A stretch of 63,227 bases of DNA, filler included, from 5 parts of 5 records of this genome joined end to end with filler, not necessarily neighbours in it, one strand, 5' to 3'. Shown: positions 1-57,112, counted from the whole stretch's first letter. The notes: generated by a model from the sequence alone, not told the origin. Numbers and translations are program-made.

Positions 1-219
1 TCAAACAGTTTTTAATTTGCCTTCGGCCGATTGTTTCGAGAAGAAGGTGCCCACTTAAAACACTCAGGTCGATCCTAAAAATCTGGATTGTTTCAGTTCA
101 ATTGAATTTACAAGTTAATTACAAAAAAGGAATGATAAGCACCAAAAGACCCTAACATATAAATCTTTGCGTGCTTTGCGCCTTCTTTGCGATCGTTGCG
201 TGAAATAAAAACAAGTCAC

Positions 220-1377
220 CTACTCATAGCTTCCTTTAACCAAAAGCTTTCCATCTTTCATCACTTGCTTGCCTTTAGCAACTACATGTTGCAATTCCAG
301 CTTATCGTTCATTAACAATAAATCAGCGTCTGCTCCTTCAAAAATATTACCTTTTTGCTTTAGCTTTAAAGCTTTAGCCGGATTTGAAGTAAGAACTTTA
401 ATGGCCGTTTCAAAAGGTACTTTTTCTTCTAAAACAGCATCACGTAGCTCTATGAGATTTGCCATTGGTAGTCCTTTTTCAACTTTCACCAAATTTCCGG
501 CTTCATCAAAACCAGGTAAAGAACCATTGGCATCAGAAGTAAAAGTGATATGATCTTCAGGAACTCCGGCTTTTAAAAACTCAGCCAGAGCTTTAGATGG
601 TTTTATCTCATATTCCTTAAAATAAGGATAACTACTTGTGGTAATATCTACCCACCCCTTTTTGCCGTATTCTTTAGCATCTTCAAAAATATAATCGTTT
701 CGATTACAATGTGTTGGATAAAACTGTTTGATAGGTAACTCACTTTGTGCCAATGCATCATAAATGGGCTGGAATGGGTTTTTAGCATCTCCCATGTGAA
801 TATTCACAATACCTGCTTTTCCACCTAACATACCTCCAACTCTTGCATGCTCTACCAATCGGATTAATTCTGCGGTAGTTGGAGTCGATGAACGATGATC
901 AGACAATGCAATCTCACCAATACCAATAACTTCTTCAATCATGGCCACATCTGAGCCTACTTCTCCTGTTATAGTTGGTGTGGGCACTTGATAAGAACCG
1001 CTGTACATCCATGCCGACATTCCCTCATCACGTAAAGCTTTGACTTTCATTAATACACTCTCAACGCTACGTGTCATTCCATCAGTTCCGAGACATCCAA
1101 TTACGGTGGTTACTCCCGCCTCAAGTAATTGCGACAATGGAATTTCAGGTGTACGTGTAGCCGGCCCACCTTCTCCACCCGCACCTGCAATATGTACATG
1201 GGCATCTATAAACCCGGGAGTAAGTTTTAACCCACTTCCATCTATTACCTCGAATTCCAGGTTTCCAATATCAATTTTATCTTTAATGGAAATAATCTTA
1301 CCTCCGGCAACCAATACATCCTTTTGACCCATTGGCTGTGGGGCATATACATCTGCACTTTTTATCAATATCATCAT
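220..1377 (-). CDS. iadA: Isoaspartyl dipeptidase (beta-aspartyl peptidase, amidohydrolase family)
   Basis: PGFIDAHVHIAGAGGEGGPATRTPE, GCLGTDG, GEIALSDHRSS, HMGD, PTHCNRN and SDANGSLP match IadA motifs. Confidence 0.95.
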   Translation of the reverse strand: MMILIKSADVYAPQPMGQKDVLVAGGKIISIKDKIDIGNLEFEVIDGSGLKLTPGFIDAHVHIAGAGGEGGPATRTPEIPLSQLLEAGVTTVIGCLGTDGMTRSVESVLMKVKALRDEGMSAWMYSGSYQVPTPTITGEVGSDVAMIEEVIGIGEIALSDHRSSTPTTAELIRLVEHARVGGMLGGKAGIVNIHMGDAKNPFQPIYDALAQSELPIKQFYPTHCNRNDYIFEDAKEYGKKGWVDITTSSYPYFKEYEIKPSKALAEFLKAGVPEDHITFTSDANGSLPGFDEAGNLVKVEKGLPMANLIELRDAVLEEKVPFETAIKVLTSNPAKALKLKQKGNIFEGADADLLLMNDKLELQHVVAKGKQVMKDGKLLVKGSYE

Positions 1378-1388
1378 GCAATTGAGTT

Positions 1389-3353
1389 TTATTGAACTAT
1401 TACTTTTTGAATGGTTGAAGTTGCACCTGCTGTTGATTTAAACAAATAAACACCTGGTATAAAATCAGACACATTTACCTGATAACGCTTTTGTCCACCA
1501 AAACGTTTAACTAATTTTCCATCAATACTGTAAATATTCAAATTAGTAACCTCTTCAAAGTCGCAATAAACCGAATGAGACGATGGATTTGGATAAATCG
1601 AAAAATCAAGAATATCATCAGTTTCGGCAATATCTACTCCCGGATTTGTTCCAATCACATACTCTTTAGTATCATTAATAATACTCAATGTCATTTCTTC
1701 AAATCCTGCTACCATTCGTGCATCTCCACTTCCAGTGCTTGTGGTCACTGAATAATCATAATTTGTCCCTTCATTTTTCATTATCATAATTGGTGAATTA
1801 CCATAAGGTAATAACTTAACCTGATCATTATCAGTATAATATTTTACATAATTCTTTTTATTTAACCATAATCCATATGCTAGATCGTATTGCAACATGG
1901 CATACGGAACTCCGGTAGTAGTGTTTTCATATACATCACTGTTATTGAAAGTTTTTGGCATTACTACGGTAGTTTCAAGCAATCCTAATCCCGGATCAAA
2001 AGTTAGCTCAGCATAATAAGAAGCACCTGAAACCATATAATCATTTACTACTGTAGCTCCTGCAAAACGGCTATTATCACCCACAAAAGCACTGGTAGTT
2101 GAAGGAAATGTAATTTGATTTGCTACACGCTGACCATTAGCTGTATTGTAAATAAAATTCATAAAAGTTTCATATTCATTATCCACAAATACAAATTTAT
2201 TTGATCCATATATGGCGGCAGCCAATTCATTATTCGTTGCATTATCATCAGTTGCTACATATTGGTATACATTACCTGATGCAAGTGAATTCAATGTGCT
2301 TGCTAATGCATCAGCAGTTGTAGACGATGCACCATGTAAAATCAAAATATTATCACCGACCTCACCACAATCATTCACAAGTGTTTCCATCATATCGGTA
2401 TGATAATTTGAATAAATTCCTCCACCTAGCAGCAAAGTATATGTGTGATTTTCTTCTGTAATTTCTGGAGCTGATGCCTGACTTAAGCCTTCTATATTCC
2501 CTGTATTTAAATCCAGTGTGCAACCATTCAAAATATTGGTTACTTTGATATCTTCAGCCACCAACATAGTTTCATTTTGATCAAAAGTTGTATTCTCAAT
2601 GTCAAAGAAGTTTCCTGCTCCTGTACCATAAGCATATATTGAATCGTTACGGATGATCATTGCGGTTAAATCATCTACACCAAGCCCTGTAAGCATTTCA
2701 CTTTGATTGTAATACCAGTTGGCTACTAATCCTACTAAACGAGGAAACCTGCCGCGCTCAGCAAAGTGTGTATCAAACAACCATCCCGGAGCTAAATCCA
2801 CAAAATCATTGGCCAAAGTCATATAGTTGTTTTGATGGTTTTCAATGGCTTCATATGGGTAAACAGTACCATTTTCTGCGGTATACACAATTGAAGACAA
2901 AATAGCCATACCCGCTGATGTTCCTGAGATAACACCACCTTCGGCATACTTATCTGTCATGGCATCAGCTATTTCAGTATCCTTGAAGTTATGATAGTAA
3001 TCATTCTGATCACCACCTTTAAAGAAAAACATATCGTAAGTCATCAAAGAATCATACATTACAGCAAATTGTCCCGGATCAATAGCACTAAAATCAAAAT
3101 GTCTAGCTGCCACAGCATTACATGTCCCAGTAAAATAATCACGCAACCAACTATCAGATTCTGCTCCCCATGCTATAATTGCTACTCTCTTATTCTCTGA
3201 TAGGCTCACCGCTTTGCGATAAGGATCGTAATTCCAGGCATCATCGCCACTTCTCTCTGTTCCACCTCCCACAAGCATTAAAGTTCCTTGTCCGAACAAC
3301 TGAACGGATATAAGAATAACAGTAAAAAGAATAAAAATCCTCTTCATAATCAA
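1389..3353 (-). CDS. Secreted cyanophycinase (peptidase S51) with degenerate second S51 domain and T9SS C-terminal sorting domain
   Basis: Signal peptide ending LFG/Q; GGDQ, GTSAG, DTHFAERGRFPRL, GVDD in domain 1; second S51-like repeat; C-terminal IYPNPSS...GVYLFK...KVIVQ sorting-domain pattern. Confidence 0.85.
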   Translation of the reverse strand: MIMKRIFILFTVILISVQLFGQGTLMLVGGGTERSGDDAWNYDPYRKAVSLSENKRVAIIAWGAESDSWLRDYFTGTCNAVAARHFDFSAIDPGQFAVMYDSLMTYDMFFFKGGDQNDYYHNFKDTEIADAMTDKYAEGGVISGTSAGMAILSSIVYTAENGTVYPYEAIENHQNNYMTLANDFVDLAPGWLFDTHFAERGRFPRLVGLVANWYYNQSEMLTGLGVDDLTAMIIRNDSIYAYGTGAGNFFDIENTTFDQNETMLVAEDIKVTNILNGCTLDLNTGNIEGLSQASAPEITEENHTYTLLLGGGIYSNYHTDMMETLVNDCGEVGDNILILHGASSTTADALASTLNSLASGNVYQYVATDDNATNNELAAAIYGSNKFVFVDNEYETFMNFIYNTANGQRVANQITFPSTTSAFVGDNSRFAGATVVNDYMVSGASYYAELTFDPGLGLLETTVVMPKTFNNSDVYENTTTGVPYAMLQYDLAYGLWLNKKNYVKYYTDNDQVKLLPYGNSPIMIMKNEGTNYDYSVTTSTGSGDARMVAGFEEMTLSIINDTKEYVIGTNPGVDIAETDDILDFSIYPNPSSHSVYCDFEEVTNLNIYSIDGKLVKRFGGQKRYQVNVSDFIPGVYLFKSTAGATSTIQKVIVQ

Positions 3354-3491
3354 AAGTTTAAGTTAGAAAACAAGTTGTATTTCAACGGCTTACGAGACAA
3401 ACTCGAAATGGGTCCGGAAATGATAGGGCAAATTACAAATTCCCAACAACATGACCAAAGAATTTTCAGCAAAGAAAAATAACTACGTATG

Positions 3492-5873
3492 TTACCAATC
3501 AATATTGGTGGTAAAGCCAATTACAAATGCTAAATTATTAATCTTCTCAGATCGGGCATACTCTCCCAACGTATAAAATGTTCCAATGGTAAATTGTCCA
3601 AAATCAGGATCCATTATACCTGCCAAAAAACCGGCTTCGTAATATCCCTTATTGGTTTGTTCAGCATAGCTTTGAAGTCTGTCACTTAATGAACCATACA
3701 TCACATTCAGCTGTGTTGAAACGGAGAACATCAGATTACTTCGGTTGATATAATATGGTTTATAGTACTGAATAAATCCCTGCACAAAATCACTATTAAA
3801 ATAACGGTGCGAAGGCATAGTAAAAAACACTCCCTGCTCATAAATAGGCATTCCTGCAGAACCTTTACTATTATAAGCAAGTTCTAGTGGCACATCACCT
3901 TCTAATGTTCCTCCACGTCCCATAAACCTAAAAGTTCCAAAAAATCGTGTACTATAATTATAAGTTATTTCAGCCAATAATTTTTTATAATTTACATCAG
4001 TAGCTTTATCATGAATACCTTGTTCATAAGCCAAATTAAAAACTGGCCCTCCTGCTCCACTTCGAATACGATAACGGCCCATATTAGTTAACTTCTCGCC
4101 TGGTGCATATCGCAAATCGAATCGCAATGCAGTTCTTGAAAAATCACCGAATATGGTATCAACAGCTGTATGACTTAAATGATAATCTTCTGCATATCCC
4201 TTCAATCTCATATTCATATTACGCGGATACTCCAACTCAAAAGCTAGCTCATGCCCTTCTAAGTAATTCAATTCCTTGAAAACGAATTTTCTCACGTTAT
4301 AAAACCCTGTTCTGTAAGGATTATAAAAATGAAAAGCTCCTTTCTCTGAAGTCTCATTTTGGTATTGATACTTTATTCTAAAGATACCTGATTTTAAAGG
4401 GTTCAAATGCAAACGTGCTGCATACCATAACGTATCAGTTTCGGTAGAATTAATGACTTTTCCACCAATACTGGCCCATTTTAGCACACGGTCATTTGTC
4501 ATTAAGGAAATTCCATAACGCCATCTTTCCTGATAATTAAAACCAAGTATCTCTTGCAAATTCAGATTGAAAATACCAATAGGTATTTGACCACTTATCA
4601 AAACTTTAGGCAGCTCAGTTAAAAAACGAAGCGCTTTGCTATTTACCGCAGTATCCATAAAAGCAAATGCATTTATATCGCGAAGCTTTAAACTATCAGT
4701 TCTAAACGCATCAAATAATGAATCATTGGTAAAAGCTGCATCAGGAGAATAACTTAATTCAAATTGATTTCTTAATATTGACTTTGGAATTTCTACTCCT
4801 ATATCAGGGTTCACAATATCTGTTTTAGCATAACCAATCAATAAAGGAAGCGCATCTAATCCTTTAATTACCTTATTGTAAAAGAAGAGATTGGATTCAA
4901 ATCTTTTAGGAAACCAATACTCATCCAACAATTTTTGATATTCCTGCTTTACTACAATTCCAAATTGAGAAGATTGAGTTGCAGGTTGCGCCACAATTCT
5001 TTTTACAGCATAGTCATTGGCATCAATATACAGCATACCATACATTCCACTGAAGGTTTTACCGACACGGGGCCGAAAGGTAATGACATAGACATCTCCT
5101 GTTTCGGTATTAAACAATGTATCTTTTAACAAGAAAAGGTATTTCTTTTCTGCGTTGGGGCTAACGGGGTTTACATATTTCAAATTAGCAATTGAGAAGA
5201 AATCCTCATAACAGGAAAGGGAATGTAATTGACCTCCAAGAATAGCAAATGCAGGATCGCGAAATCCCGCTATATTGGTTGTTAAAACCCGTTCACGTGA
5301 TTTTGGCTTCTTATAAAACTTTTCTGTAATAGCTTCTGATACAAAAAGATTCGATTTCTCTGAAAATTTTAGAAGTGCTTTTACCTGAGGAGCAACAGCT
5401 GCCCGATCTTTATAGTAAAGTAAAGTATCGCGATTAACCTCAATGGTAAATTTATTATATGCCGTGTATCTATATGAAGGTAAACTCTGTGGATTGTGCT
5501 CATCTCTTTTGTCAATCACTTTTTGCATAATAGTATCAGCCGGATTAATACCCGGAAAAACAACAACCTCCTCCAGCAGATAGGATTTGGGTTTAAGTTT
5601 GATACGGTAGCTTCTGATTTTATTCACATAAAATGAATATGTTTCAAAACCAAGGAAATAAACAGTTAGAGTATCCGGCTTTTCAAGTTCTAATTCAAAT
5701 TTACCATCAAGACCTGAAACTGTTCCTACATTACCACTTGTAGTAATAGATGCGAAAGATACTGGTCTATTAAAATGATCTAGTATAACCCCGGAAACTT
5801 TTATTTGAGCACTTGAAATATGAATTGTTAATGTGAAGAAGAAGAATAGTAAAAATCTCAATGCTGTATTCAT
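3492..5873 (-). CDS. Carboxypeptidase-regulatory-like domain plus DUF5686 outer-membrane protein
   Basis: Signal peptide, VSGVILD...GTVSGLDGKF...LGFET...LEEVVV N-terminal domain, NPADTIMQKVI, beta-rich C-terminus typical of Bacteroidota. Confidence 0.75.
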   Translation of the reverse strand: MNTALRFLLFFFFTLTIHISSAQIKVSGVILDHFNRPVSFASITTSGNVGTVSGLDGKFELELEKPDTLTVYFLGFETYSFYVNKIRSYRIKLKPKSYLLEEVVVFPGINPADTIMQKVIDKRDEHNPQSLPSYRYTAYNKFTIEVNRDTLLYYKDRAAVAPQVKALLKFSEKSNLFVSEAITEKFYKKPKSRERVLTTNIAGFRDPAFAILGGQLHSLSCYEDFFSIANLKYVNPVSPNAEKKYLFLLKDTLFNTETGDVYVITFRPRVGKTFSGMYGMLYIDANDYAVKRIVAQPATQSSQFGIVVKQEYQKLLDEYWFPKRFESNLFFYNKVIKGLDALPLLIGYAKTDIVNPDIGVEIPKSILRNQFELSYSPDAAFTNDSLFDAFRTDSLKLRDINAFAFMDTAVNSKALRFLTELPKVLISGQIPIGIFNLNLQEILGFNYQERWRYGISLMTNDRVLKWASIGGKVINSTETDTLWYAARLHLNPLKSGIFRIKYQYQNETSEKGAFHFYNPYRTGFYNVRKFVFKELNYLEGHELAFELEYPRNMNMRLKGYAEDYHLSHTAVDTIFGDFSRTALRFDLRYAPGEKLTNMGRYRIRSGAGGPVFNLAYEQGIHDKATDVNYKKLLAEITYNYSTRFFGTFRFMGRGGTLEGDVPLELAYNSKGSAGMPIYEQGVFFTMPSHRYFNSDFVQGFIQYYKPYYINRSNLMFSVSTQLNVMYGSLSDRLQSYAEQTNKGYYEAGFLAGIMDPDFGQFTIGTFYTLGEYARSEKINNLAFVIGFTTNIDW

Positions 5874-11129: not shown

Positions 11130-11285
11130 TCCAACACCCTATAAATAAGCTATATAAACAAATCCAACACTAAACAATATTAATACTCTCCTACTCTTAA
11201 CAGTTCTAATAATCGAACTTTTATAGTTTAAACTTTTTAATATTTTTATGGTTTGATAATGTAATTTTCAATTAATAGCTTACAC

Positions 11286-12134
11286 ATGAAACTAAAACTT
11301 AGAAGGCTGGTCAACAATAAGTATTTCGAATACTTTATTATTCTTATCATTCTTATTAACTCCACACTTATTGGAGTTGAAACCTATTTCACCAACCATT
11401 TCATTCATGTGTCACATGTTATAGCGCTGGCTATTTTTACAATTGAAATTGTAATGCGTTGGTTAGCGCGAGTGAGTATCAAAGAGTTTTTCAAAAGCGG
11501 CTGGAATATTTTTGACTTATCTATTGTACTAATTGGATACATTCCCGAAGCTTGGTTTAGTGATGCCGAAGCAATTGTGGCTATTCGAGTTTTACGTGTG
11601 TTCAGAGTGCTACGTCTAATAAGGGCTGCTCCTGAGATAAAGTTAATTATCTCTGTACTTACGCGATCGCTTTCCGCACTGACTTATAACGCTATATTTT
11701 TCTTTATTTTCTTATATCTTTTTGCAATAATTGGAACTACCTTATTCAAGCTTCCTGAGGCCAATACAGCAGATCCAGAGACGCTTGCTAAAATTGAGCA
11801 ATTCAATGAAAAGGTAACTAGAGCGCCTGAAATATCACCTGATCCATATGGAACGCTGGATGAAACCTTTTTTACACTATTTCGCATACTGACTGGAGAA
11901 GACTGGACAGACTTGCGTTATAATTTAACTGTAGCAAGCAAATTGGAGCTCATACCTGTTTCAGAGACTGTGATTACAGCCTTTCATGTAGTTTGGTTTA
12001 TTCTCAGCGCATTCCTCATGCTTAACCTTTTGGTCGGTGCCATCCTGAATAACTATCAGGTAATCATGGACGAAGAACGTCAACGACAAAAGGAACGACA
12101 GCAACGTAAAGAGGAACGTTTGAAATCTGAGTAA
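11286..12134 (+). CDS. Single-domain voltage-gated cation channel (BacNav/Cav-like ion transporter)
   Basis: Six TM segments, GWNIFD S3, S4 IRVLRVFRVLRLIR, P-loop FRILTGEDWTD, S6 LNLLVGAILNN, charged C-terminal tail. Confidence 0.92.
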   Translation: MKLKLRRLVNNKYFEYFIILIILINSTLIGVETYFTNHFIHVSHVIALAIFTIEIVMRWLARVSIKEFFKSGWNIFDLSIVLIGYIPEAWFSDAEAIVAIRVLRVFRVLRLIRAAPEIKLIISVLTRSLSALTYNAIFFFIFLYLFAIIGTTLFKLPEANTADPETLAKIEQFNEKVTRAPEISPDPYGTLDETFFTLFRILTGEDWTDLRYNLTVASKLELIPVSETVITAFHVVWFILSAFLMLNLLVGAILNNYQVIMDEERQRQKERQQRKEERLKSE

Positions 12135-12188: not shown

Positions 12189-12196
12189 TATATTTG
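12189..12196 (+). promoter_or_regulatory. Bacteroidota -7 promoter element
   Basis: TATATTTG upstream of ATG 12212. Confidence 0.5.
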
Positions 12197-13039: not shown

Positions 13040-13139
13040 NNNNNNNNNNNNNNNNNNNNNNNNNNNNNNNNNNNNNNNNNNNNTTAATTAATTAANNNNN
13101 NNNNNNNNNNNNNNNNNNNNNNNNNNNNNNNNNNNNNNN
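13040..13139. other. Artificial contig spacer
   Basis: N44-TTAATTAATTAA-N44; stops in all six frames. Confidence 0.98.
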
Positions 13140-23018: not shown

Positions 23019-23118
23019 NNNNNNNNNNNNNNNNNNNNNNNNNNNNNNNNNNNNNNNNNNNNTTAATTAATTAANNNNNNNNNNNNNNNNNNNNNNNNNN
23101 NNNNNNNNNNNNNNNNNN
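23019..23118. other. Artificial contig spacer
   Basis: N44-TTAATTAATTAA-N44. Confidence 0.98.
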
Positions 23119-23250: not shown

Positions 23251-26200
23251 TTGAATAAAAAAGAGGCAGTTATTAAAAGAGCGTTTCAGAAGTCACGCCT
23301 AATATTTGGTCTGGTCATGATCATAGCATTTTCCCACATGTGGGGGGAAAGCGGTGCTTATTCACCTGAATTTACATTCAAATATCAGATCCCGGGTTTT
23401 ACATCGGTTTTTCCAAGTTCTCCTAAGGGGTTTACTCGCGGATATGAACAAAACGAAAATCCGATAAGCGTAAATTTTCCCAAATGGTTTTCAAATATTA
23501 AAATGCACCAAGGTGTCAATGATTCAGGAAATGTTCTGATCGTGTCAGAGCGCATTGGTGAACATGACCTGTATTCTCCAAGATATGTCCCTTTTTCAGA
23601 GTATTTTGTTTTCAAGAAAAGCTATGATCTGGATAAACTCTGGTATAATAGAGTAGCCTTAACAGACAGTCTGTTTTTTATTGATAAATTAAAAGAACAA
23701 CAAAGCAGTCAATCACTTGAGATCATCGGGGCAGATATTGCAGGTCAGAGAGTTGCTTTGAGAATACGCGGAAGAATATCCATAACCGGTAAATATAATC
23801 AGCAGAACAACTCGATCATGGCCACCGGAAACATGGAAAATGAACAAAAAAGTTTTTTAATGGACCAGACCCAGCAGTTTACAATCGAAGGGTCGATCGG
23901 TGATCGAATTACGATCTCTATTGATGAGGATAGCGAGCGTGATTTTGATTTTGAAAATGCCATTAAGATCAATTATAAGGGCAAAGAGGACGAGATCGTC
24001 CAAAGAGCGAATTTTGGTAATATCGGTTTATCTTTGCCGGGAACTCAGTTTGTGACCGGATCATCATCATCCAGCGGTCTTTTCGGTGGAAAAGCGATCA
24101 TGAAATTAGGTCCTATTGATGTGACGGCTATCGCCTCATACGAAAAAAAAGACAGCAAAAAGAAATCCTGGGGTGGCGGTTCCGACGATGACGGCGGTAC
24201 GAGTGTATTGATCTATGATTATGAGTATAAACGCAATACATATTATTACATCGATGAATTATATCGTAAAAATATGTACCCTGTGAACTATGAATCGGGA
24301 ACATTTTCATACAGTTTTGATGATCAGATCGTTTATTGGGATCTATATGTGAGTTGTAATGAAAGGGAAGATGAAAAGATCAAAGCCATTGCATATGTTG
24401 ATATTGCTTCAGACGGTACTCCCACAAGAGTAAGTGAAAATGCCGAGGAAGATGTTGCGGATTCGATCTATTTTAAACGATTGGAACCGTCTACGGAAAC
24501 CAATCCTTATGGTGATTACACGATACAGGAGGCATTGGGCTATATCCGCCTGAACATGGGATTGAGTGATGATAACATTCTGGCTATAGCATATCGCACC
24601 AATGATGGGCGACAATATGGTGATATCAACACCGGTTCATATTTAAAAGTGATCAAAGCCGAAAACCCCAAACCTTCGTATGTTACGTGGGATCTTGAGT
24701 GGAAGAATGTTTATGATCTAAAAGCCAGGAACATTGATGAAGATGGATTTGATCTAAAAATATTCATTAATGACAACAATCCCCGTGAACTTCATTCGAG
24801 TGGTGATCCTTATATCAAATATTTCGGTCTTGATAACTATGATCAAAGCGGGTCTTATGATAACAGCGACGGCAAGATAGATGTAAAGCCGGACGGCCTT
24901 TTTGTTGATCTGGTTGCCGGTGAATTATGGATGCCATATTCGCGACCTTTTCAGGCACGACCCGAGGGCGACCAGACAGATGGTGTTTATAATAATAATT
25001 TGATCTCAGCCAGTGATGAGAATCTACCCTCGGCAGAGAAGATATATACAAGCTCATATACCGATCCGGAAAGAAAAGAAAAAAAATACTATATAGAAGT
25101 AAAATATACGAACAGAAGTTCTACGATCGATCTTGGTGAAATGTTCATTATTGAAAATAGTGAAGAAATTTTGATCAATGGAAAACTTATGACCAAGGGC
25201 GTAGACTATGATATCGATTACTTTTCCGGCTTGATCACGCTGAAATCAGCAGAAGCTATGGATCCCGATGCAAGTATTGATATCAATTATGAAACAGAAC
25301 AGTTATTTGGCGGTATTGGTGAACAGAAGCTAATGGCGGGTATGAGGGCAGAGTATCAGATCAGTGAAAAAGCATTTATTGGTGCTACAGCCATGTATTA
25401 TAACCGCTCGGTTTTGGATGATAAGAACGTAAATATTGGCGATGAACCGTTCCAGAACTTTATTTGGGATGTGAATGGTGAATTTGAATATGATCTTGAT
25501 TGGTTGGACAGGGCGATGAATGCCTTGCCATTTATTCACGTAAAACAAGCAAGCCAGATCAAAGTAAGTGGTGAGGTTGCTCAAATACTTCCTAACCCCA
25601 ATACTATTGATAATGAAGAAAGCGGGGACTTTAACGGTGTGGCAAAACTTGATGATTTTGAATCTGCCAGTCAAGAAACACCGATGAATGTCAATTTCCA
25701 GAAATGGACCCATGCAAGTAAACCGATCAATACATTCTTTGCTTCGAGTTTTAAAGAGCGTGGATTTTTATTCTGGTACAATCCTTTCTATGTCGGTTCG
25801 AACGGGACTAAGGTATTCGGCATGTATACCAAATACATTTGGCCGCAGAAAGAGACCACCGAAACCGATCAATATACCAACGTACTTTCTGTTGTTCTGG
25901 ATCCTGAAATAAATGGTATAACTGGGCATGAAACACAACATGATCTACGTCAGATATGGGGCGGTATTATGCAGCCTGTCTATATGTATGATCAGAGCAA
26001 TAGTAAATATATTGAACTTTGGGTAAGAGGTGATAGAGGCCAATTACAGATCGATATCGGTGAGATCAGTGAAGATTGGTATAATGTAGATTATGATGTT
26101 AATGTCTCTGAAGAGGGCGACGGTCAAAAGAATTACGAAGATAAGGATTTGAACGGTAATTTACAGATAACGTCAGATTATACCGAAGATACGGGTATCA

Positions 26201-29200
26201 ACGGCCTGACAGATGAAGAAGAAATTGCACTAGGCTGGGATCCCTATATTGATAATTTTGATAAAGAAGGATATAAAGAGGGCGAAGTTCGTTTCTGTAA
26301 CGGTAGTGAAGATAATGCCGGCACGGACGGTATTCAACCCTACCCGGAAACAGAGGATATTGACAGGGACGGTAAGCTTGACCAGGCAAACAATTACTAT
26401 TCGTACAATCTTGATCTAAGCAATGAAGATTGGCTTGTTTCCGAAACACGTTTTGACAATGGGCGATTAACCGGTTGGAAGCAATATCGTATTCCACTGA
26501 CAGCCGTTATTGACAGTGTGGGTAAACCCAGTTTTGAGTCTGTTCGCATGATGCGTTTAAATGTTTTTGATATGGCTGATCAGGATACCATCCAATTTGC
26601 ATCCGTCTCCATTGTGGGAAATGAATGGCTTGAAGTTGGATTAGCTGATGAAGAATCTACTATTTATACAGTGGATGATGACAGATTTTTCATTACCGTT
26701 AAAAATTCAGATGAAGATGCCGATTATCAATCACCGCCGGGTATTAGCGGGCGTGAACAGATAGATCCTTTAGGTGGAGCGACCATCACGGAAAAAGAGC
26801 AAGCTCTTGTGCTGAATTTAGAGGGTTTGCGACCGGGAGAAACTGCATTGGCTGAAAAGATCATGCTTGAGAGCGAAACCCTTCTTATGTACAAAAAATT
26901 AAAAATGTTCGTTCATGGTCCAAGCGAATTAACAGATGATGAATCTCCGGTAAATCTATTTTTGCGTATCGGTCGCGGCGATATGACGGAATATTATGAA
27001 GTTGTAACAGAAGTATATGATGATTGGGATGAAAGAAATAATATTGAAATGATCTTTGAAGAGATCACACAATTAAAGATACTGACAGAATTTGACGGAA
27101 TAGAATATTTTTCATATGAAGATGGCGATATTAAAGAATATCACCCCATAGATGAAACCACAGGTGAATATACGGGGAAGATATTCAGGGTTGTGGGTAA
27201 TCCCTCCTTATCCAGAATTGAAAAAATGCAGCTAGGTGTAACAAATATCAGCTCTTATTATGATTATTCAGGAGAGATCTGGGTGAATGAAATGCGGGTC
27301 GTGGAAAGCAACAATGATCCGGGTATGGCCATGCGTGGTGACATGAACCTTAAATTGGGCGGCTTGATGAACCTGAACGTCAATGCTAAAAAAACCGATG
27401 CGGATTTCCGTCAGGTCAACCAGCAAATGTCGAGTTCGCTTAAAACAGCCGAGAGCTTTAATATCAACCTGAAAGTTAACGCAAATAAAATTTTTCCGGA
27501 TAAATGGAAAATTAAATTTCCGGTTGCCATGTCTCAGAGCCAATCGACTACAACACCGAAGTATTACCCGGGTTCAGATATTCTTCTTGGAGACGATCCG
27601 AATGACAGTTTAAAGGTAATAACACAACGTCAATCCGTAAATACATCACTGAGCCGTTCGGGCACTAAAAAAGATCCTTTTTTAACGCGTGTTTTGGTTA
27701 ATCCCGTAAGAGCCAGTTTCAACGCATCTCAATCAGAGAGCAGTAGTCTTGAAATTGCCTCTAGAGAAAACTTAACCATGTCCGGGGCTTTCGAATACAA
27801 TTTGTCCATAGATAAAGGAAAAGGTATACCATACCTTTCCTGGATCCCCTTTCTTGATGATAAAACAAAAGAAGACAGGTTCTACTGGAAACCCACATCT
27901 TTCAAATGGAAGATGAATATTTCTCATAAAAACGAGGATCGAATTTCAAGAACGACACAGGACACAAGTAGCAACTTTTCTTTTGGTATGACAAAGAATA
28001 TGAACATTGCTTTTAATCCTTTTAAAACCATGAAGATCACTTATGTTCGAACAAGCACAAGTGACCTTTATGATTACAAAGATGATGTGTGGAGCTTGTT
28101 CTCAGACCTGTCATATGACAGCTTGATGAATGGTGTGAATGTTGGTGATGTTACGTCTATAAGGGAAAATATAGCTATATCTTATGCGCCAATATTAGCC
28201 GACTGGTTAAAACCTCGCTTGAACTATAACTCAAATTATTCCTATCGTTCTCAGAAAGACCTATACTATGCCGGCGTGGGTGTTACAAGAAAATATTCTA
28301 TCGACCTGACCCTTTCACCGAAACAGATCTGGCAGACATATGAGAAGAAATTCAAAGCAATGGCAAGCAAAAAAACAGCTTCTCAAAATATAAAACCAAA
28401 GAAAAAAGCGCCCGCCAGACCCGAGCCCAAAATAAATAGAGAACAAGATGGTCCCCCAGAGGAAGAAAGACCAGCAAGCAAAATAACGGAAGTTCCTGAA
28501 CAAAAAGGAAAAAATACCCCAAAGAGACGAATTGCACCAAAGAAAAAGATCACCATGACGGAGGTCCTGGGTAGAATATCACCGATAAGATTTAATTTCA
28601 GTGATAATTTAAACAAAACAAATAGTGGTATTACCGGAAGCGATACCATAAAAATATATAAGGACGTATCATATAAATACAGATATGGCTTTGGAGATTA
28701 TTTTTATTTGCCGACCGGTTCTTTTGAAGGTAGTTTAAGCAGTCCGAACAACAATGACAGGAAATTGTCTTTGTCAATTTCTTCCGGAATACAGTTGACA
28801 AAATCCATCAAGCTTACATTGGGTTATAAACAAAACACATCGTCAGGACCGCAATACCAATTTAAAACATCCGATGATTATTATTTTGATGAACTAACTG
28901 ATATTATCGCTTATGGCGATACACTTATTCTGATCAAATCAGATTCTTCGGCAAGCAGAGGTTATTTACCCTTGGGAGAAACCGGAAAAGACGGTTTTGT
29001 TGTCCCGGATTATTCTTTGAATTGGCAGATAACCCCAAGTCAGTATAAATGGACGAACGGAAAGCTTGATTTTATTAAAAAGATCAATATTCAGCATAAA
29101 ATGTCTGGTAAAGAAGTTACAAGCTATAAATTAAGAACAGATGCCCAGCCATATTATATGGAAAGTTCTTCTTCTACCTATACCTTGAACTTTACACCTC

Positions 29201-29700
29201 TCGTAAAAGCATCGTTCACTTTTGCCGGAGACCTAAGGGCGGATATCGGTTATAATAAAACCATTCGCATAGATCATTCCGGTGATATGGAAATTGATTA
29301 CGAGAATACCAGTATCGTTAGAACTTATCAGGATAATATGACCCTGAACGTATCCTATAATTACAACAAAGGCCTGACGATCCCCGTACCCTTTTTGAAG
29401 AATATCAAGGTGATCAATATGAAAAATGAGATCGCATTCTCATTACAAGGCAAATATGGTTTAAATAAAAAAATCGTCAAGAACAAAGGGGATCTGGAAT
29501 TTAGTGAACCAAAGGATTTCAGGATCAATTGGGAATTGGAGCCTCAGATCACCTATCGATTCAGTAAAAATATTGACGGAAGATTATTCTTTAAATATGG
29601 CCAGCGGATCGATATGACGCAGCAGGATATGGAAGGTGAAAATAAATTTGACGATTATAAGGATTTTGGCATAACCGTAACGATCAGGATCAGCGGGTAA
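23251..29700 (+). CDS. sprA: SprA/Sov-family type IX secretion translocon
   Basis: 2149 aa; EGSIGDRI, FDFENAIKINYKGKEDEIVQ, GLFGGK, WKNVYDL, GVDYDIDYFSG, DDFES, DIGEISED, ETEDID, GWKQYRIPL, GEIWVNEMR; start codon uncertain. Confidence 0.9.
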   Translation: MNKKEAVIKRAFQKSRLIFGLVMIIAFSHMWGESGAYSPEFTFKYQIPGFTSVFPSSPKGFTRGYEQNENPISVNFPKWFSNIKMHQGVNDSGNVLIVSERIGEHDLYSPRYVPFSEYFVFKKSYDLDKLWYNRVALTDSLFFIDKLKEQQSSQSLEIIGADIAGQRVALRIRGRISITGKYNQQNNSIMATGNMENEQKSFLMDQTQQFTIEGSIGDRITISIDEDSERDFDFENAIKINYKGKEDEIVQRANFGNIGLSLPGTQFVTGSSSSSGLFGGKAIMKLGPIDVTAIASYEKKDSKKKSWGGGSDDDGGTSVLIYDYEYKRNTYYYIDELYRKNMYPVNYESGTFSYSFDDQIVYWDLYVSCNEREDEKIKAIAYVDIASDGTPTRVSENAEEDVADSIYFKRLEPSTETNPYGDYTIQEALGYIRLNMGLSDDNILAIAYRTNDGRQYGDINTGSYLKVIKAENPKPSYVTWDLEWKNVYDLKARNIDEDGFDLKIFINDNNPRELHSSGDPYIKYFGLDNYDQSGSYDNSDGKIDVKPDGLFVDLVAGELWMPYSRPFQARPEGDQTDGVYNNNLISASDENLPSAEKIYTSSYTDPERKEKKYYIEVKYTNRSSTIDLGEMFIIENSEEILINGKLMTKGVDYDIDYFSGLITLKSAEAMDPDASIDINYETEQLFGGIGEQKLMAGMRAEYQISEKAFIGATAMYYNRSVLDDKNVNIGDEPFQNFIWDVNGEFEYDLDWLDRAMNALPFIHVKQASQIKVSGEVAQILPNPNTIDNEESGDFNGVAKLDDFESASQETPMNVNFQKWTHASKPINTFFASSFKERGFLFWYNPFYVGSNGTKVFGMYTKYIWPQKETTETDQYTNVLSVVLDPEINGITGHETQHDLRQIWGGIMQPVYMYDQSNSKYIELWVRGDRGQLQIDIGEISEDWYNVDYDVNVSEEGDGQKNYEDKDLNGNLQITSDYTEDTGINGLTDEEEIALGWDPYIDNFDKEGYKEGEVRFCNGSEDNAGTDGIQPYPETEDIDRDGKLDQANNYYSYNLDLSNEDWLVSETRFDNGRLTGWKQYRIPLTAVIDSVGKPSFESVRMMRLNVFDMADQDTIQFASVSIVGNEWLEVGLADEESTIYTVDDDRFFITVKNSDEDADYQSPPGISGREQIDPLGGATITEKEQALVLNLEGLRPGETALAEKIMLESETLLMYKKLKMFVHGPSELTDDESPVNLFLRIGRGDMTEYYEVVTEVYDDWDERNNIEMIFEEITQLKILTEFDGIEYFSYEDGDIKEYHPIDETTGEYTGKIFRVVGNPSLSRIEKMQLGVTNISSYYDYSGEIWVNEMRVVESNNDPGMAMRGDMNLKLGGLMNLNVNAKKTDADFRQVNQQMSSSLKTAESFNINLKVNANKIFPDKWKIKFPVAMSQSQSTTTPKYYPGSDILLGDDPNDSLKVITQRQSVNTSLSRSGTKKDPFLTRVLVNPVRASFNASQSESSSLEIASRENLTMSGAFEYNLSIDKGKGIPYLSWIPFLDDKTKEDRFYWKPTSFKWKMNISHKNEDRISRTTQDTSSNFSFGMTKNMNIAFNPFKTMKITYVRTSTSDLYDYKDDVWSLFSDLSYDSLMNGVNVGDVTSIRENIAISYAPILADWLKPRLNYNSNYSYRSQKDLYYAGVGVTRKYSIDLTLSPKQIWQTYEKKFKAMASKKTASQNIKPKKKAPARPEPKINREQDGPPEEERPASKITEVPEQKGKNTPKRRIAPKKKITMTEVLGRISPIRFNFSDNLNKTNSGITGSDTIKIYKDVSYKYRYGFGDYFYLPTGSFEGSLSSPNNNDRKLSLSISSGIQLTKSIKLTLGYKQNTSSGPQYQFKTSDDYYFDELTDIIAYGDTLILIKSDSSASRGYLPLGETGKDGFVVPDYSLNWQITPSQYKWTNGKLDFIKKINIQHKMSGKEVTSYKLRTDAQPYYMESSSSTYTLNFTPLVKASFTFAGDLRADIGYNKTIRIDHSGDMEIDYENTSIVRTYQDNMTLNVSYNYNKGLTIPVPFLKNIKVINMKNEIAFSLQGKYGLNKKIVKNKGDLEFSEPKDFRINWELEPQITYRFSKNIDGRLFFKYGQRIDMTQQDMEGENKFDDYKDFGITVTIRISG

Positions 29701-31364: not shown

Positions 31365-32180
31365 TTGGCGAGAATGAACGCAAAGGATAAGAGAGCTATG
31401 AAAAAAATCATTACCGGAAATTTTAACGGAACTGCATTATTTATTGATATAAAGAATTTTCTTGGTATCAGTGATATGCTGTCTCCCCAAGAGACGTGCC
31501 AATTTATCTTTAGGGTTATTGAACCCTTGTCTGATTGTATTAATGATCATGGTGGTTATATCTGCCAAATACAAGGTGATGCCATCTTTGCCGTGTTCGG
31601 ATTAAAAGATAAATCTGAGGATCACGCAAAAAATGCCATTAATTGTGCCATATCAATGCAAATGATATTGGATAGCATGAATCCGGTAAAAATGGGTGAT
31701 ATTCGTATTCCTTTAGCAGCGAATATCGGTATTCGTTCCGGTGATTTGTACGCATGCCAAATAAAAGTCGTAGAACACAATGAATTTACGGTGCTGGGGA
31801 AGACCGCCAATTTAGCATCCCGCTACCAAAAAATGAATAAACATTATGATACGAATATCTTGATAGATGAAACGGTATTTGCTTATATTAAGAAGAATAT
31901 TGTTACCAGAAACTTGGACAAAGTTGAAATAGAGGGCTGCAGTACTCCGGTCAACCTGTATGAAGTTGTGTGTTTTCACTCCGGTAAGGAACATAATGAA
32001 ATACAGAAGACAATGAACTATAAGAAAGGACTGGCTTCCTATATGAACGAAGATTGGGATGAGGCTTTCCGTTGTTTTTCTCAGGTATCAGATAACAAAG
32101 TCAGTTCTTATATGATGGAGAGATGCACTTTACGAAAAGCTTTCATGGATTTCATCGATCCAGAAAAAACAAATAAATAA
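31365..32180 (+). CDS. Class III nucleotidyl cyclase domain protein with C-terminal TPR-like helices
   Basis: FIDIKNF, GDAIFAVFG, IGIRSG, TVLGKTANLASR. Confidence 0.88.
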   Translation: MARMNAKDKRAMKKIITGNFNGTALFIDIKNFLGISDMLSPQETCQFIFRVIEPLSDCINDHGGYICQIQGDAIFAVFGLKDKSEDHAKNAINCAISMQMILDSMNPVKMGDIRIPLAANIGIRSGDLYACQIKVVEHNEFTVLGKTANLASRYQKMNKHYDTNILIDETVFAYIKKNIVTRNLDKVEIEGCSTPVNLYEVVCFHSGKEHNEIQKTMNYKKGLASYMNEDWDEAFRCFSQVSDNKVSSYMMERCTLRKAFMDFIDPEKTNK

Positions 32181-33513: not shown

Positions 33514-33613
33514 NNNNNNNNNNNNNNNNNNNNNNNNNNNNNNNNNNNNNNNNNNNNTTAATTAATTAANNNNNNNNNNNNNNNNNNNNNNNNNNNNNNN
33601 NNNNNNNNNNNNN
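33514..33613. other. Artificial contig spacer
   Basis: N44-TTAATTAATTAA-N44. Confidence 0.98.
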
Positions 33614-41322: not shown

Positions 41323-43137
41323 TTACAGCTCGAGTTTTGAGAGATCGAGGTTGAATTCTTTGATTTTACGGTACAGTGTTGTGCGGTCAATATGGAGCAA
41401 TCGGGCTGCCTTGGCCTTGTTGCCTCCTGTTTTCTTTAAAGCAAGCATGATTCGATCTGCTGTAGATAGATCAGTGTCCGGAAATGTTGGCTGAATATTT
41501 TTGGGGGCAGGTTCCTGTTCAATGATTGTTGGCTCATGAGGGCGACCTTCCGTTTGGTCTGAGTAATGAACGATTTCTGGAGGCAATTCAGCGGTTGAGA
41601 TGGATGGGCCTTCGCATAAAACACATGCCCTTTCAATTACATTTTTAAGTTCCCGTACATTGCCGGGCCAAGGGTATTTAAATAATTTTTCTAAAGCCTG
41701 ATCGGAAATACCGTTAATGGATTTAGCGATTTTGGGGGCAATGTTTTCAATGAAATTGTTTGCCAGTAATGTGATATCATTCCCGCGCTCCCTCAAGGCT
41801 GGAAGCATAACATCTATCACTCGAAGTCTGAAGTAGAGATCCTCACGGAATTCGCCTGTACGGACTTTTTCCTTGAGGTCCACATTGGTAGCGGTGATTA
41901 CTCGTACGTCCACTGTTATAGGGGTATCTTGGCCTACAGGGTAAAAGGTGCTTTCCTGGAGAAAACGGAGCAGGCGGAGCTGCATCATCTGTGAGATATC
42001 GCCTATTTCGTCGAGGAACAAGGTGCCGCCGTCGGCCTGAAGAATTCTCCCCATCCTGTCTCGGTCAGCTCCGGTAAAAGAACCTTTCCGATGACCGAAA
42101 AGTTCGCTCTCCAGTAGGTTTTCAGGGATGGCAGTGCAGTCCACTTTTATCAAGGGTCTGTTTTTTCGGTGGCTTTCTTGATGGAGGGCTTCTGCCGCAA
42201 GTTCTTTGCCTGTCCCTGATTCGCCGGTAATAAGAGCCGTAAGGTCAACCCTCCCCACATTTTCTATCATGGTGTATGCAGCCTGCATCACATCGCTTTC
42301 GCCAATAAAACGATGGAAAGAACTTCTTCTGACGCTGGCCGCCGATTCTGGGTTGGACATGTCCCGTATAACAATGACGATCCCGTCTGGGCTTCCAGCA
42401 GCTCCTTGTAACGGGGTTGTACAAACACTCAATACTTTGGTCTGGTTGTTGGTTGAGCGGCACTCCTGTCGGTGCTGGGTAATTTCCACTCCGCTTTTTA
42501 ATACTTTAAGCAGATCGTTCTTCAATGGTTCAAATTCTTTTTTTGCGCATAAGGATGCGATGGTAAAGTTGTCAACAGTACCTGTGTGCAATTCATTGAA
42601 AAGAAGTCGGGCAGCAGGGTTCATGTCCATAATCTGCAGGTTCGCGTCGACCGTAATAATGCAGTCGGTCACGCTTTTAAAAACAGTCTCAAGGAATATT
42701 CGATACCTTTCTTTTTCCTGCTCGACTGCTTTTTTTTCCAGTTCGAGCTGCTGTTGTTTTAGAGCCAGGCGAGCAATTTTAAGCAGTGTGTCCTTTTCAA
42801 CCGGTTTGGGTATATAGTCAAATGCACCGAGGCGAACTGCCTCCGCAGCAGTTTCGACGTTTGGATAACCGGTAATCATAACTACCGGGCATTCTATATT
42901 CTTCTTTCTGATGGTTCGTAGAAAGTCGATTCCTGAGTGACTGCCGAGTACGATATCACTGATGATAAGGTCAAAGTTGAGTCTGTCTAATTCGTTGATT
43001 GCCTCATCATATGACTGAGCTGTAATAACTGGTGAATATCCCTGGTTTCGAAGAAAAAACTGGAAGGTGTCGCGTAGGCTTTCTTCGTCATCGACCACCA
43101 GGATTGCTGTTTGCTGTTGTTCTTGTTTCTCAAGCAT
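41323..43137 (-). CDS. Sigma54-dependent response regulator (REC-PAS-AAA+-Fis HTH)
   Basis: ILVVDDE REC domain, PAS, GESGTGKE, ESELFGHRKGSFTGA, WPGNVREL, GNKAKAARLLHIDRTTLYRK. Confidence 0.95.
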   Translation of the reverse strand: MLEKQEQQQTAILVVDDEESLRDTFQFFLRNQGYSPVITAQSYDEAINELDRLNFDLIISDIVLGSHSGIDFLRTIRKKNIECPVVMITGYPNVETAAEAVRLGAFDYIPKPVEKDTLLKIARLALKQQQLELEKKAVEQEKERYRIFLETVFKSVTDCIITVDANLQIMDMNPAARLLFNELHTGTVDNFTIASLCAKKEFEPLKNDLLKVLKSGVEITQHRQECRSTNNQTKVLSVCTTPLQGAAGSPDGIVIVIRDMSNPESAASVRRSSFHRFIGESDVMQAAYTMIENVGRVDLTALITGESGTGKELAAEALHQESHRKNRPLIKVDCTAIPENLLESELFGHRKGSFTGADRDRMGRILQADGGTLFLDEIGDISQMMQLRLLRFLQESTFYPVGQDTPITVDVRVITATNVDLKEKVRTGEFREDLYFRLRVIDVMLPALRERGNDITLLANNFIENIAPKIAKSINGISDQALEKLFKYPWPGNVRELKNVIERACVLCEGPSISTAELPPEIVHYSDQTEGRPHEPTIIEQEPAPKNIQPTFPDTDLSTADRIMLALKKTGGNKAKAARLLHIDRTTLYRKIKEFNLDLSKLEL

Positions 43138-43169
43138 TGGGTGTACTCCTTGGATGCCTGTAACTAAAA

Positions 43170-43919
43170 TTAACGAAAGGTTGTGAGGTCTCTGAAGACA
43201 ACAACTGCCCCGGTGATGATTTTGTTTTCTACGATCGGGGTACTGGTGTATTCAACGGGAAACGCCTTCCCTTCTTTGGTCCAGAAAAGTTCGTCCGATC
43301 CGAAATGGACCTTGCCGTCTCTGTAAGCTTTATGGATAGGACATTCTTCGACAGGGTAGGTCTCCCCGTTTTTGTAACTGTGGTGTACCAGGTCATGGTG
43401 CGATTTTCCGATAAGTTCTTCCGGTGACCAGTCAAGCATGATAGAAGCGGCCTTGTTGACAAAGGTAACATTACCTTCCTTATCAAGACCGAATATGCCT
43501 TCACCCGCTGACTCGAGGATTAGTTCCATCTGCCGCTTTATTCTTTTTGTTTCTGTTTCTGCCTGAATACGCTCTGCTATCTCCCGGTTAAGCGAAGCAT
43601 TTGCGACAGATATTTCAAAGGTCCTTCGTTCCACCCTGTCTTCCAGGTCATGGGTGGTAGATTCTAAGGCATCGCTAACTTCATCGAGTTGGTTCTGGTG
43701 CTCCTTAATTTTATGAAGGAGGTTTCCATTTGCCTTTTTAGTAATGAAAATGACGGTGACGCCCAGTACTGCCATTACCATGATAGAAAAGAGGGGGTAA
43801 GGCAGCTGTTGGCTTGCATTGTCTGCGTGGAGGAGGCGTATATCCATCAAAAATAGAAAAAAAGTTGCCGGGCAAAATAATATGCCGATTTTTAGAAATA
43901 ATTTTTGGTTATCCGACAT
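43170..43919 (-). CDS. Membrane-anchored PAS protein without output domain
   Basis: Two TMs, LEDRVERRT coiled coil, PAS (ESAGEGIFGLD...GAVVVFRDLT) then stop; ATG 43919 overlaps the kinase end. Confidence 0.85.
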   Translation of the reverse strand: MSDNQKLFLKIGILFCPATFFLFLMDIRLLHADNASQQLPYPLFSIMVMAVLGVTVIFITKKANGNLLHKIKEHQNQLDEVSDALESTTHDLEDRVERRTFEISVANASLNREIAERIQAETETKRIKRQMELILESAGEGIFGLDKEGNVTFVNKAASIMLDWSPEELIGKSHHDLVHHSYKNGETYPVEECPIHKAYRDGKVHFGSDELFWTKEGKAFPVEYTSTPIVENKIITGAVVVFRDLTTFR

Positions 43920-45960: not shown

Positions 45961-45986
45961 GGAGTACCGAATGAGTTATGGAAAAG

Positions 45987-46049
45987 GGTTGCACATGTGT
46001 TGCAGGAATTGTGGCAAACAACACTTTTTGCAACATATGTGTTGCAAAA
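45987..46049. promoter_or_regulatory. TGTNGCA site cluster upstream of the kinase operon
   Basis: TGTTGCA 45998, TGTGGCA 46010, palindrome TTTTGCAACA-TATG-TGTTGCAAAA 46026-46049. Confidence 0.6.
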
Positions 46050-46339
46050 TAGCACGTAAATATGCGTATGGGGATATTTATGCAGCGAATGGGCCAGCTT
46101 TAAAGCCGAACTTTATTTCAAGCAGAATATACTTGAACCTGAGCGGTGATGATTGCACAATATTTGTTGATGCAAAAACGGGTTGCTTCCCGGAGTAAGT
46201 GAGTTAGCCTTTTATCGTCTAAGTTATTGGTGAAGGGAATTTTTTGCGGGTATTATAGAAATGAGAAGAGCAAGGAGAGGCTCGTTTTTAAAGAATACGA
46301 CAGAAAACATGTTAGCGGAAAAGGAAGCAGGGGAGGCAA

Positions 46340-57012: not shown

Positions 57013-57112
57013 NNNNNNNNNNNNNNNNNNNNNNNNNNNNNNNNNNNNNNNNNNNNTTAATTAATTAANNNNNNNNNNNNNNNNNNNNNNNNNNNNNNNN
57101 NNNNNNNNNNNN
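57013..57112. other. Artificial contig spacer
   Basis: N44-TTAATTAATTAA-N44. Confidence 0.98.

Follow-up and report, generated by a model that had tools for sequence, protein, structure and literature searches.

The window, that is, the whole stretch of DNA analysed here (63,227 nucleotides, filler included, composed of five parts joined end to end), contains at 11286..12134 on the plus strand an intact open reading frame (ORF) with an ATG start and 282 codons followed by a stop, which encodes a one-domain channel protein of 282 amino acids with six transmembrane helices (S1–S6). The protein matches the Pfam family Ion_trans (PF00520) over residues 11–262 (E 8.2e-43, 146.8 bits against a cut-off of 25), and a search of the NCBIfam profiles gave only far sub-threshold matches. 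In our opinion, with a probability of roughly 0.7, this channel is functional and voltage-gated, comes from an uncharacterised prokaryotic clade whose sister has filters like those of NavPp and CavMr, binds divalent cations strongly and resembles repeat II of eukaryotic voltage-gated Ca2+ channels (Cav) only locally. The features of the locus, with the evidence for each, are the following.

11130..11285, plus strand: AT-rich upstream intergenic region of 156 bp (sequence).
11286..12134, plus strand: complete voltage-gated cation channel gene (ORF list, translation, Pfam Ion_trans, AlphaFold2 model).
11319..11537, plus strand: voltage sensor S1–S3, helices 12–32, 38–60 and 65–84 (AlphaFold2 helices).
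11565..11627, plus strand: S4, residues 94–114, with five Arg (sequence, conservation, model helix).
11631..11747, plus strand: S4–S5 linker and S5 as a single continuous helix, residues 116–154 (model).
11748..11855, plus strand: long S5–P loop (L5 turret), residues 155–190 (model, conservation profile).
11775..11813, plus strand: extra predicted turret helix, residues 164–176 (AlphaFold2 model).
11856..11891, plus strand: P1 pore helix, residues 191–202 (model; E193, F196, L198, F199 and R200 conserved in 90% or more of the 79 sequences aligned).
11892..11912, plus strand: selectivity filter T203-G204-E205-D206-W207-T208-D209 (sequence, conservation).
11904..11942, plus strand: P2 pore helix, residues 207–219, then a P2–S6 loop (L6) of 7 residues (model).
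11964..12131, plus strand: S6 from residue 227, with the invariant N247, helix 227–281 running into the C-terminal tail (model).

The AlphaFold2 model of the channel, built from a 79-sequence alignment, has a mean predicted local distance difference test score (pLDDT) of 90.3 and a predicted template modelling score of 0.75 and shows S1–S6 together with P1 and P2. Using Foldseek, the best matches to this model were CavAb, at the top, and NavAb (E about 1e-10, 26–30% identity), and the NavAb L176G structures 8ha1 and 8ha2 were also among the matches. Residues E54, D77, R104, S128, Y144, G150, F154, W207 and N247 are invariant among the 79 aligned relatives, and 90% or more of them retain the filter residues T203, G204, E205, D206, T208 and D209. 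The first-pass annotation, made from the sequence alone, had placed the filter within FRILTGEDWTD at 11892–11912, and T203–D209 map exactly there. It had also described an intact Arg-rich S4, which agrees with the five arginines found at every third position (R101, R104, R107, R110 and R113) and kept across relatives, R101, R107 and R110 in at least 90% of the 79. In S1–S3, N25, F51 and R58 are conserved in at least 90% of the 79 sequences in addition to the invariant E54 and D77; by general knowledge of voltage sensors, these five residues are read as the counter-charges and the charge-transfer centre. The C-terminal tail (about 258–282) is short, highly charged and poorly conserved, and the whole protein contains no cysteine.

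The family to which this channel belongs is large. At E <= 1e-5, a word-seeded search gave 2028 relatives, and the 120 best ones are 56–96% identical to the query and, where named, are annotated as 'ion transporter' or 'voltage-gated sodium channel'. When the query was aligned with these 120 relatives, TGEDWTD was found to be kept in 114/121 sequences, the other seven having TGDDWSD (2), SGEDWTD (2), TGENWTD (1) and TGDDWTD (2); so strict a conservation speaks for selection on the motif. The stretch from K155 to the residue before F199 has 44 residues in 114 of the 121 sequences and 42–45 in the other seven. An exhaustive search of 50%-identity representatives yielded 10193 proteins at E <= 0.001, and TGEDWTD occurs in 10 of the 25 matches listed with fewer than 500 amino acids. 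For 10 representatives, the clusters yielded Saprospiraceae and Armatimonadota as the two organism names.

In species-representative genomes, 364 stretches encoding a relative were found, and all counts of phyla and gene neighbourhoods given here refer to the best 80 of these 364 related loci. Bacteroidota account for 53/80 loci (including Rikenellaceae 11, Muribaculaceae 8, Prevotellaceae 4 and others) and Verrucomicrobiota for 19, of which 18 are from Akkermansiaceae; Elusimicrobiota contribute three loci, Pseudomonadota two, Ignavibacteriota and Nitrospirota one each, and one locus is unplaced. Named genomes supplied 76 ORFs, of which 54 carry TGEDWTD, 13 TGDDWTD and seven TGDDWSD, no filter being recognised in the other two. 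Horizontal transfer may account for this spread over unrelated phyla, which have gut or sediment as their common habitats. EukCats, the one-domain channels of eukaryotes, are encoded by stramenopiles, haptophytes and alveolates; the relatives found here sit in bacterial genomes, and the window itself holds Bacteroidota-type genes (SprA, Por_Secre_tail). Two relatives have additional domains: in P0143, a TGEDWTD protein of 406 amino acids, a C-terminal TerB domain is fused to the channel (E 8e-7), and P0193 (333 amino acids) has an N-terminal BACON domain ahead of a pore-only part.

The position of the channel was studied with a maximum-likelihood tree of 81 rows and 259 columns, calculated under LG+C20+F+G4 by posterior mean site frequencies (PMSF) with ultrafast bootstrap and Shimodaira–Hasegawa-like approximate likelihood ratio test (SH-aLRT) supports. 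A first quick tree of 107 rows had given the same picture; for the careful tree 31 rows were dropped for speed (two four-domain proteins making up eight rows, 19 NavPp/CavMr-like, two long-turret and two other rows), and five canonical rows were added. These canonical rows, with the filter TLESWSM, are plasmid channels only, Bacillus-type bacterial voltage-gated sodium channels (BacNavs) being missing. The query lies within a TGEDWTD clade of 23 rows (support 98/97), the sister of which is a clade of 28 rows (98/97), named NavPp/CavMr-like from its filter motifs (TLEDWTD, TLEGWxx, TGDDWTQ, TCEDWTD and similar, many with Gly at filter position 2, or Gly-2). The two clades together are supported at 100/99. 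The canonical TLESWSM channels are grouped in a clade of their own (100/99), with the query outside it. All 24 eukaryotic repeats fall into a single clade (99/95), in which I is paired with III and II with IV, on the canonical side of a branch with 99/89 support.

These results bear directly on the proposal of the first-pass annotation that the channel may represent a lineage informative on the origin of Cav. When the TGEDWTD clade was forced together with the eukaryotic repeats, a grouping that followed from this proposal and was fixed before the tree was calculated, the likelihood became 40.5 log units worse, and the approximately unbiased (AU) test gave p 0.0059. In 26 columns of the P-loop, identity to the query is 62% for the NavPp/CavMr-like channels, 39% for repeat II, 28–32% for repeats I, III and IV and 30% for the canonical channels, and in the rest of the protein the corresponding values are 37%, 21%, 23–24% and 29%. 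The four-domain matches examined in the search of all lengths each consist of four separate repeats, according to a split by the family profile, with 25–30% identity to the query; a crude pattern match detects TGEDWN in repeat II of 15/68 four-domain relatives. In the sampled eukaryotic four-domain channels, repeats I and III have TLEGW-type filters, as in CavMr, and repeats II and IV have TG(E/D)xW-type ones.

The top match of the query in the Protein Data Bank (PDB) is a eukaryotic T-type channel (Cav3), in the alignments of which repeat II reads 'fqiltqedwn'. As a sign of kinship this rank was rejected: control proteins with the filters TLESWTA and TLEGWIE also have Cav3 on top, because the scores of the four repeats add up. 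Domain for domain, NaChBac reaches 100.7 bits (residues 4–155), while any single Cav repeat reaches at most 69.7 bits. The channel is no closer to animal Ca2+ channels than other bacterial channels are.

Bacterial channels are said to 'classically lack' long L5 and L6 loops (PMC10120453), which makes the long turret of the query unusual for bacteria. The first-pass annotation was right that the S5–P loop is long, and its estimate of roughly 30 residues is replaced by 36 (155–190) in the AlphaFold2 model. The middle of the turret is variable in sequence, fixed in length and predicted to be helical, and (A)PxxSPDPYGTL, which leads up to P1, is strongly conserved; average pLDDT values for the blocks of 10 residues over 151–190 are 94, 94, 82 and 80. 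Cysteines are typical of eukaryotic L5 loops, and the turret of the query has none. In the rows of the tree, L5 comprises 10 residues in the five canonical channels, 9–14 in 27 of the 28 members of the sister clade (23 in the remaining one), 13–23 in short members of the TGEDWTD clade and 36–40 in the query and 10 others. Long turrets are thus present in 11 of 57 prokaryotic rows, and one change on the tree suffices for them; the long turret arose once, as a derived insertion in a prokaryotic clade, and has no link to eukaryotic turrets. The L6 loop has 7 residues in the query, 0 in the five canonical rows and 0–6 in the NavPp/CavMr-like clade. A filter of the TGDDWSN type falls in the long-turret subclade.

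Taken together, the separate eukaryotic clade, the rejection by the AU test and the single origin of the turret inside a prokaryotic clade show that TGEDW resembles Cav repeat II locally, whether by convergence or as an old state common to both, and that the match is no argument for a special kinship. According to the first-pass annotation, nesting among ordinary BacNavs along with plain Na+ selectivity would make the match convergent. Since the TGEDWTD channel is not nested among ordinary TLESW channels and stands outside their clade, that scenario holds only by half. As a whole, the earlier reading was partly borne out: the claim about Cav origins, taken as special kinship, finds no support in the tree (eukaryotic repeats separate at 99/95, AU p 0.006), and the motifs it had quoted were correct, namely TLEGWVD for CavMr and TLEDWTD for NavPp (PMC7041947), the repeat II motif, which is TGEDWNS in Cav1.2 (PMC4436565), and the canonical TLESW, found as TLESWSM in five named alpha- and gammaproteobacterial plasmid channels.

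Filters in the neighbourhood of the clade are diverse. In searches that started from P0159 (filter TLEDWTD) and P0330 (TLESWTA), filter position 2 varied freely among the homologues, the filters including TGDDWTQ, TCEDWTD, TAEDWTD, TGEDWTD, TLEDWTD, TLEGWxx, TVEDWTD and TQDxW. Gly is the commonest state of position 2 in the NavPp/CavMr-like clade of the tree. A channel with the filter TFEDWTD was found on large plasmids of Pseudoalteromonas (L081:474-1280 on the 843-kb plasmid of P. donghaensis and eight other Pseudoalteromonas records), and it branches outside both the TGEDWTD and the NavPp/CavMr-like clades. The canonical TLESWSM channels come from plasmids of Ruegeria, Leisingera, Qingshengfaniella, Peteryoungia and Piscirickettsia. 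The Ruegeria protein scored 271 bits against 5hvx, which we take to be NavMs, about 245 bits against further chains, presumably NavAb, all titled 'Ion transport protein', and 234 bits against 6p6w, the sole row named NavAb. A Streptomyces plasmid protein (L087) was left out, its coding sequence being cut at the end of the locus and its filter not found there.

The single-domain channel is predicted to assemble as a homotetramer. Depolarisation would drive the five-Arg S4 outward against the conserved acidic and aromatic partners in S1–S3, and the S4–S5 linker would then open the S6 gate. Four copies of TGEDWTD may line the pore, so that Glu205 would form one ring of four, Asp206 a second one directly over it, and the four Asp209 would lie in the outer vestibule. 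This arrangement would give 12 acidic pore residues, as in NavPp, with Gly204 probably in place of the usual Leu under the filter.

By analogy with channels already studied, Ca2+ permeation or block by the TGEDWTD channel is a well-motivated expectation, and strong binding of divalent cations is its most likely property. NavPp, with TLEDWTD, is reported to conduct Na+ and to be blocked by extracellular Ca2+, and in CavMr and NavPp it is Gly at position 4 that confers Ca2+ selectivity (PMC7041947). In NavAb, the substitutions L176G, L176A, L176Q, L176N and L176T introduce a block by Ca2+, and the mutants blocked in this way are blocked by Mg2+ and Sr2+ too; crystal structures of L176G (8HA1, 8HA2) reveal an extra water-filled cavity under the filter, in which Ca2+ stacks (Irie et al. 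2023, PMC10349818). Gly and Ala at position 176 had been chosen from EukCat sequences, and only Phe is mentioned for BacNav and AnclNav, which suggests that native prokaryotic Gly-2 channels lay outside the set considered there (PMC10349818). A 'beacon' rule has also been proposed, by which an Asp after the filter Glu marks channels that are either Ca2+-selective or Na+-conducting and blocked by millimolar Ca2+ (PMC10120453). From these analogies our first choice, on which the chances seem about evenly balanced, would be a monovalent (Na+) current blocked by millimolar Ca2+ or Mg2+ with some Ca2+ permeability, as in NavPp. Outright Ca2+ selectivity would be the second choice, and some other ion behaviour appears less probable than either.

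The second choice would make the protein a native, highly Ca2+-selective 'BacCav', resembling the engineered CavAb or Cav repeats II and IV and not a Ca2+-blocked Na+ channel, and we consider it a tentative alternative. The number and spacing of its acidic residues are those of the Ca2+-selective mutants TLEDWSD of NavAb and TLEDWAD of NaChBac (PMC7041947), the 'beacon' Asp permits Ca2+ selectivity (PMC10120453), CavAb is the top Foldseek match, and TGEDW is the repeat II motif of the Ca2+-selective Cav1.2 (PMC4436565), TGEDWN recurring in the 15/68 four-domain relatives mentioned above. However, the nearest characterised filter and lineage, that of NavPp, is Na+-permeable and Ca2+-blocked, and the window channel has Asp at position 4, where Gly brings Ca2+ selectivity in CavMr and NavPp (PMC7041947). 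That the protein is instead an ordinary Na+-selective BacNav, in which the filter differences have no functional effect, would fit the annotation of its relatives as 'voltage-gated sodium channel' and the 100.7 bits of its voltage-sensor half against NaChBac, but this is improbable in view of two extra acidic residues per subunit compared with TLESWSM, Gly in place of Leu, a position outside the canonical clade (100/99), a P-loop identity to canonical channels of just 30% and the strict conservation of TGEDWTD (114/121).

Another explanation concerns the history of the filter. It is conceivable, though quite unlikely, that TGEDW is homologous to the filters of Cav repeats II and IV, the clade having kept the filter of their one-domain ancestor. 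In a crude Fitch pass with a midpoint root, the filter reconstructed for the common base of the TGEDWTD clade and its sister is T-G-(D/E)-D-W-T-D, and that for the base of eukaryotic repeats II and IV is T-G-E-(A/D)-W-N-E. The P-loop of the query has its highest identity among the repeats to repeat II (39% against 28–32%). But the eukaryotic repeats are one clade (99/95) on the canonical-BacNav side, the AU test rejects their union with the TGEDWTD clade (p 0.006), position 2 changes easily, as its free variation among close prokaryotic relatives (G, L, C, A, V, Q, F) demonstrates, and the Fitch pass leans on an arbitrary root and biased sampling. The tree rejects a special sister-group kinship and is compatible with a shared ancestral state. 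A related view, doubtful but slightly less so, is that the Gly-2 filter T-G-(E/D)-D-W-T-D, and not TLEDWTD as inferred earlier from sparse sampling, was ancestral to the NavPp/CavMr-like and TGEDWTD radiation and perhaps the state inherited by Cav repeats II and IV. In that case, Cav would have a mosaic filter made up of two prokaryotic types, TLEGW in repeats I and III and TGEDW in II and IV, and the TGEDWTD clade of gut and environmental bacteria would be a living representative of the latter type.

Returning to the preferred reading, a functional channel with strong divalent binding and a local likeness to Cav repeat II, several points weigh against it. A literature search found no published current for any member of the TGEDWTD clade. 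An acidic filter results in Ca2+ selectivity in channels of the CavAb and CaChBac type but in a block by Ca2+ in NavPp, whose filter has as many charges (PMC7041947); identical filters differ by scaffold, and the TGEDWTD clade with its longer L5 and L6 is a third case. Even in NavAb L176G, 40 mM Ca2+ removes only half of the current (PMC10349818). As for the tree, the sister clade is NavPp/CavMr-like by filter motifs alone, the sequences of CavMr, NavPp and NaChBac standing outside the tree, which has no outgroup and in which the rows of the sister clade are all matches to one TLEDWTD query, a biased sampling.

In the window, the channel gene has an S41 peptidase gene upstream and a RhuM/Fic gene downstream, and a leucine-rich repeat protein is encoded nearby as well. 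The channel gene looks like a stand-alone unit here, with a presumed promoter. A conserved operon partner was searched for among 566 ORFs of the 80 related loci and rejected, since no neighbour recurs beyond 7/80 loci, the count of the commonest neighbour cluster. In 6/80 loci the channel gene is the last one of a same-strand module comprising an SPFH(Band_7_1)-GYF gene, a small GYF gene, a gene of a zinc-ribbon membrane protein and ORFs without assignment. These loci (L041, at 28-4819, L052, L058, L064, L065 and L066) belong to two Prevotella, a Bacteroidales metagenome-assembled genome (MAG), a member of Saprospirales, a Bacteroidota MAG and Sangeribacter, and the module spans Prevotella, Muribaculaceae and Saprospirales; in L041 the gap ahead of the channel gene is 3 bp. 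The module and the TerB fusion hint that in some lineages such channels may be connected with membrane-stress or metal systems; neither bears on the window's own gene.

Four joints of the window (13040-13139, 23019-23118, 33514-33613 and 57013-57112) are identical and consist of 44 N, TTAATTAATTAA and 44 N. The joint sequence looks like a six-frame-stop linker stringing contigs, which makes the window five separate contig pieces, so that genes to the right of 13039 may not be neighbours of the channel gene. The first joint truncates the RhuM/Fic ORF, which begins at 12194. An ORF of 2149 amino acids with an SprA_N domain (type IX secretion or gliding) is located at 23251-29700 on the plus strand, just past a contig joint, and a Por_Secre_tail protein is encoded at 1389-3353 on the minus strand; by these two genes the source belongs to Bacteroidota. 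In addition, a protein of 271 amino acids with an adenylate/guanylate cyclase catalytic domain is encoded at 31365-32180 on the plus strand, adjoining RmuC, and a cluster of PAS/GAF histidine kinases with a sigma-54 response regulator occupies 41323-48951 on the minus strand.

One-domain bacterial channels serve as structural models for the choice between Na+ and Ca2+. A full-text literature search found no prokaryotic TGEDW channel, the matches being papers on eukaryotic Cav or unrelated ones; a search on BacNavs of Bacteroidetes gave nothing relevant, and the literature found on AnclNav and prokaryotic Cav consists solely of the work of Shimomura and Irie and papers citing it, with nothing on the TGEDWTD clade. 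This clade is large, uncharacterised and common in Bacteroidota and gut Akkermansia. The divalent-block mechanism of NavAb came from an artificial Leu-to-Gly mutant, and here Gly and the full acidic set are native, being strictly conserved across hundreds of species, including Alistipes, Prevotella and Akkermansia of the animal gut. The clade bears on the 'beacon Asp' rule, on the position-2 cavity model and on the effect of a long turret helix on selectivity, and it opens the question of the role of a voltage-gated Ca2+-sensitive channel in anaerobic gut bacteria. To the origin of Cav it adds little, as the link of the NavPp-like filter to repeats II and IV has already been published and the tree reveals no special kinship. 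In our opinion, the channel is a good candidate for electrophysiology and structural work.

Among known systems, the canonical BacNavs (NaChBac, NavAb and NavMs, with TLESW) share with the query the architecture, the voltage sensor and the homotetrameric design, predicted for the query, and differ in filter, loop lengths and clade. Repeat II of Cav has T-G-E-D-W in common with it, including the Asp after the filter Glu (Cav1.2 TGEDWNS; PMC4436565), and its P1 helix ends in FQIL, that of the query in FRIL; Cav, however, consists of four tandem repeats and the query of a single 282-residue domain, the identity outside the P-loop is 21%, and the two are not sisters in the tree.

The closest parallels are found among AnclNav, the 'ancestor-like BacNav' (Shimomura et al. 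2020, PMC7041947). NavPp of Plesiocystis pacifica is also a one-domain voltage-gated channel, and its filter is identical to that of the query in 6/7 positions, with three acidic positions in common and Leu instead of Gly at position 2 (PMC7041947). For the function of the query, the Ca2+ block of the Na+ current in NavPp is the best guide. Its placement in the sister clade is inferred from the filter motif, and the query lies in a separate, well-supported clade; the S5–P loop of NavPp-type sister channels has 9–14 residues in 27/28 rows against 36 in the query, and their P2–S6 loop 0–6 against 7. AnclNav filters are described as more acidic than TLESW, and where TLESWSM has a single Glu, the query has E205, D206 and D209; it is sister (100/99) to the clade with NavPp-identical and CavMr-like filters, a clade identified by motifs only. 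CavMr of Meiothermus ruber, a native prokaryotic Ca2+ channel of the common superfamily, likewise has an acidic filter ending in Asp (TLEGWVD), but with Gly at position 4, where the query has Asp, its Gly being at position 2 (PMC7041947). The L6 loop of CavMr is said to be extended and to contain a disulfide (PMC10120453), whereas the query is devoid of cysteine. NavAb N49K/L176G (8HA1/8HA2; PMC10349818) combines Gly at the filter position of the query with divalent block, and CavAb (PDB 5KLB) has an acidic load equal to that of the query. Both are mutants on the canonical NavAb scaffold with a short turret, while the filter of the query natively combines the acidic set of NavPp and CavAb with the position-2 Gly that promotes divalent block in mutagenesis, and both are conserved.

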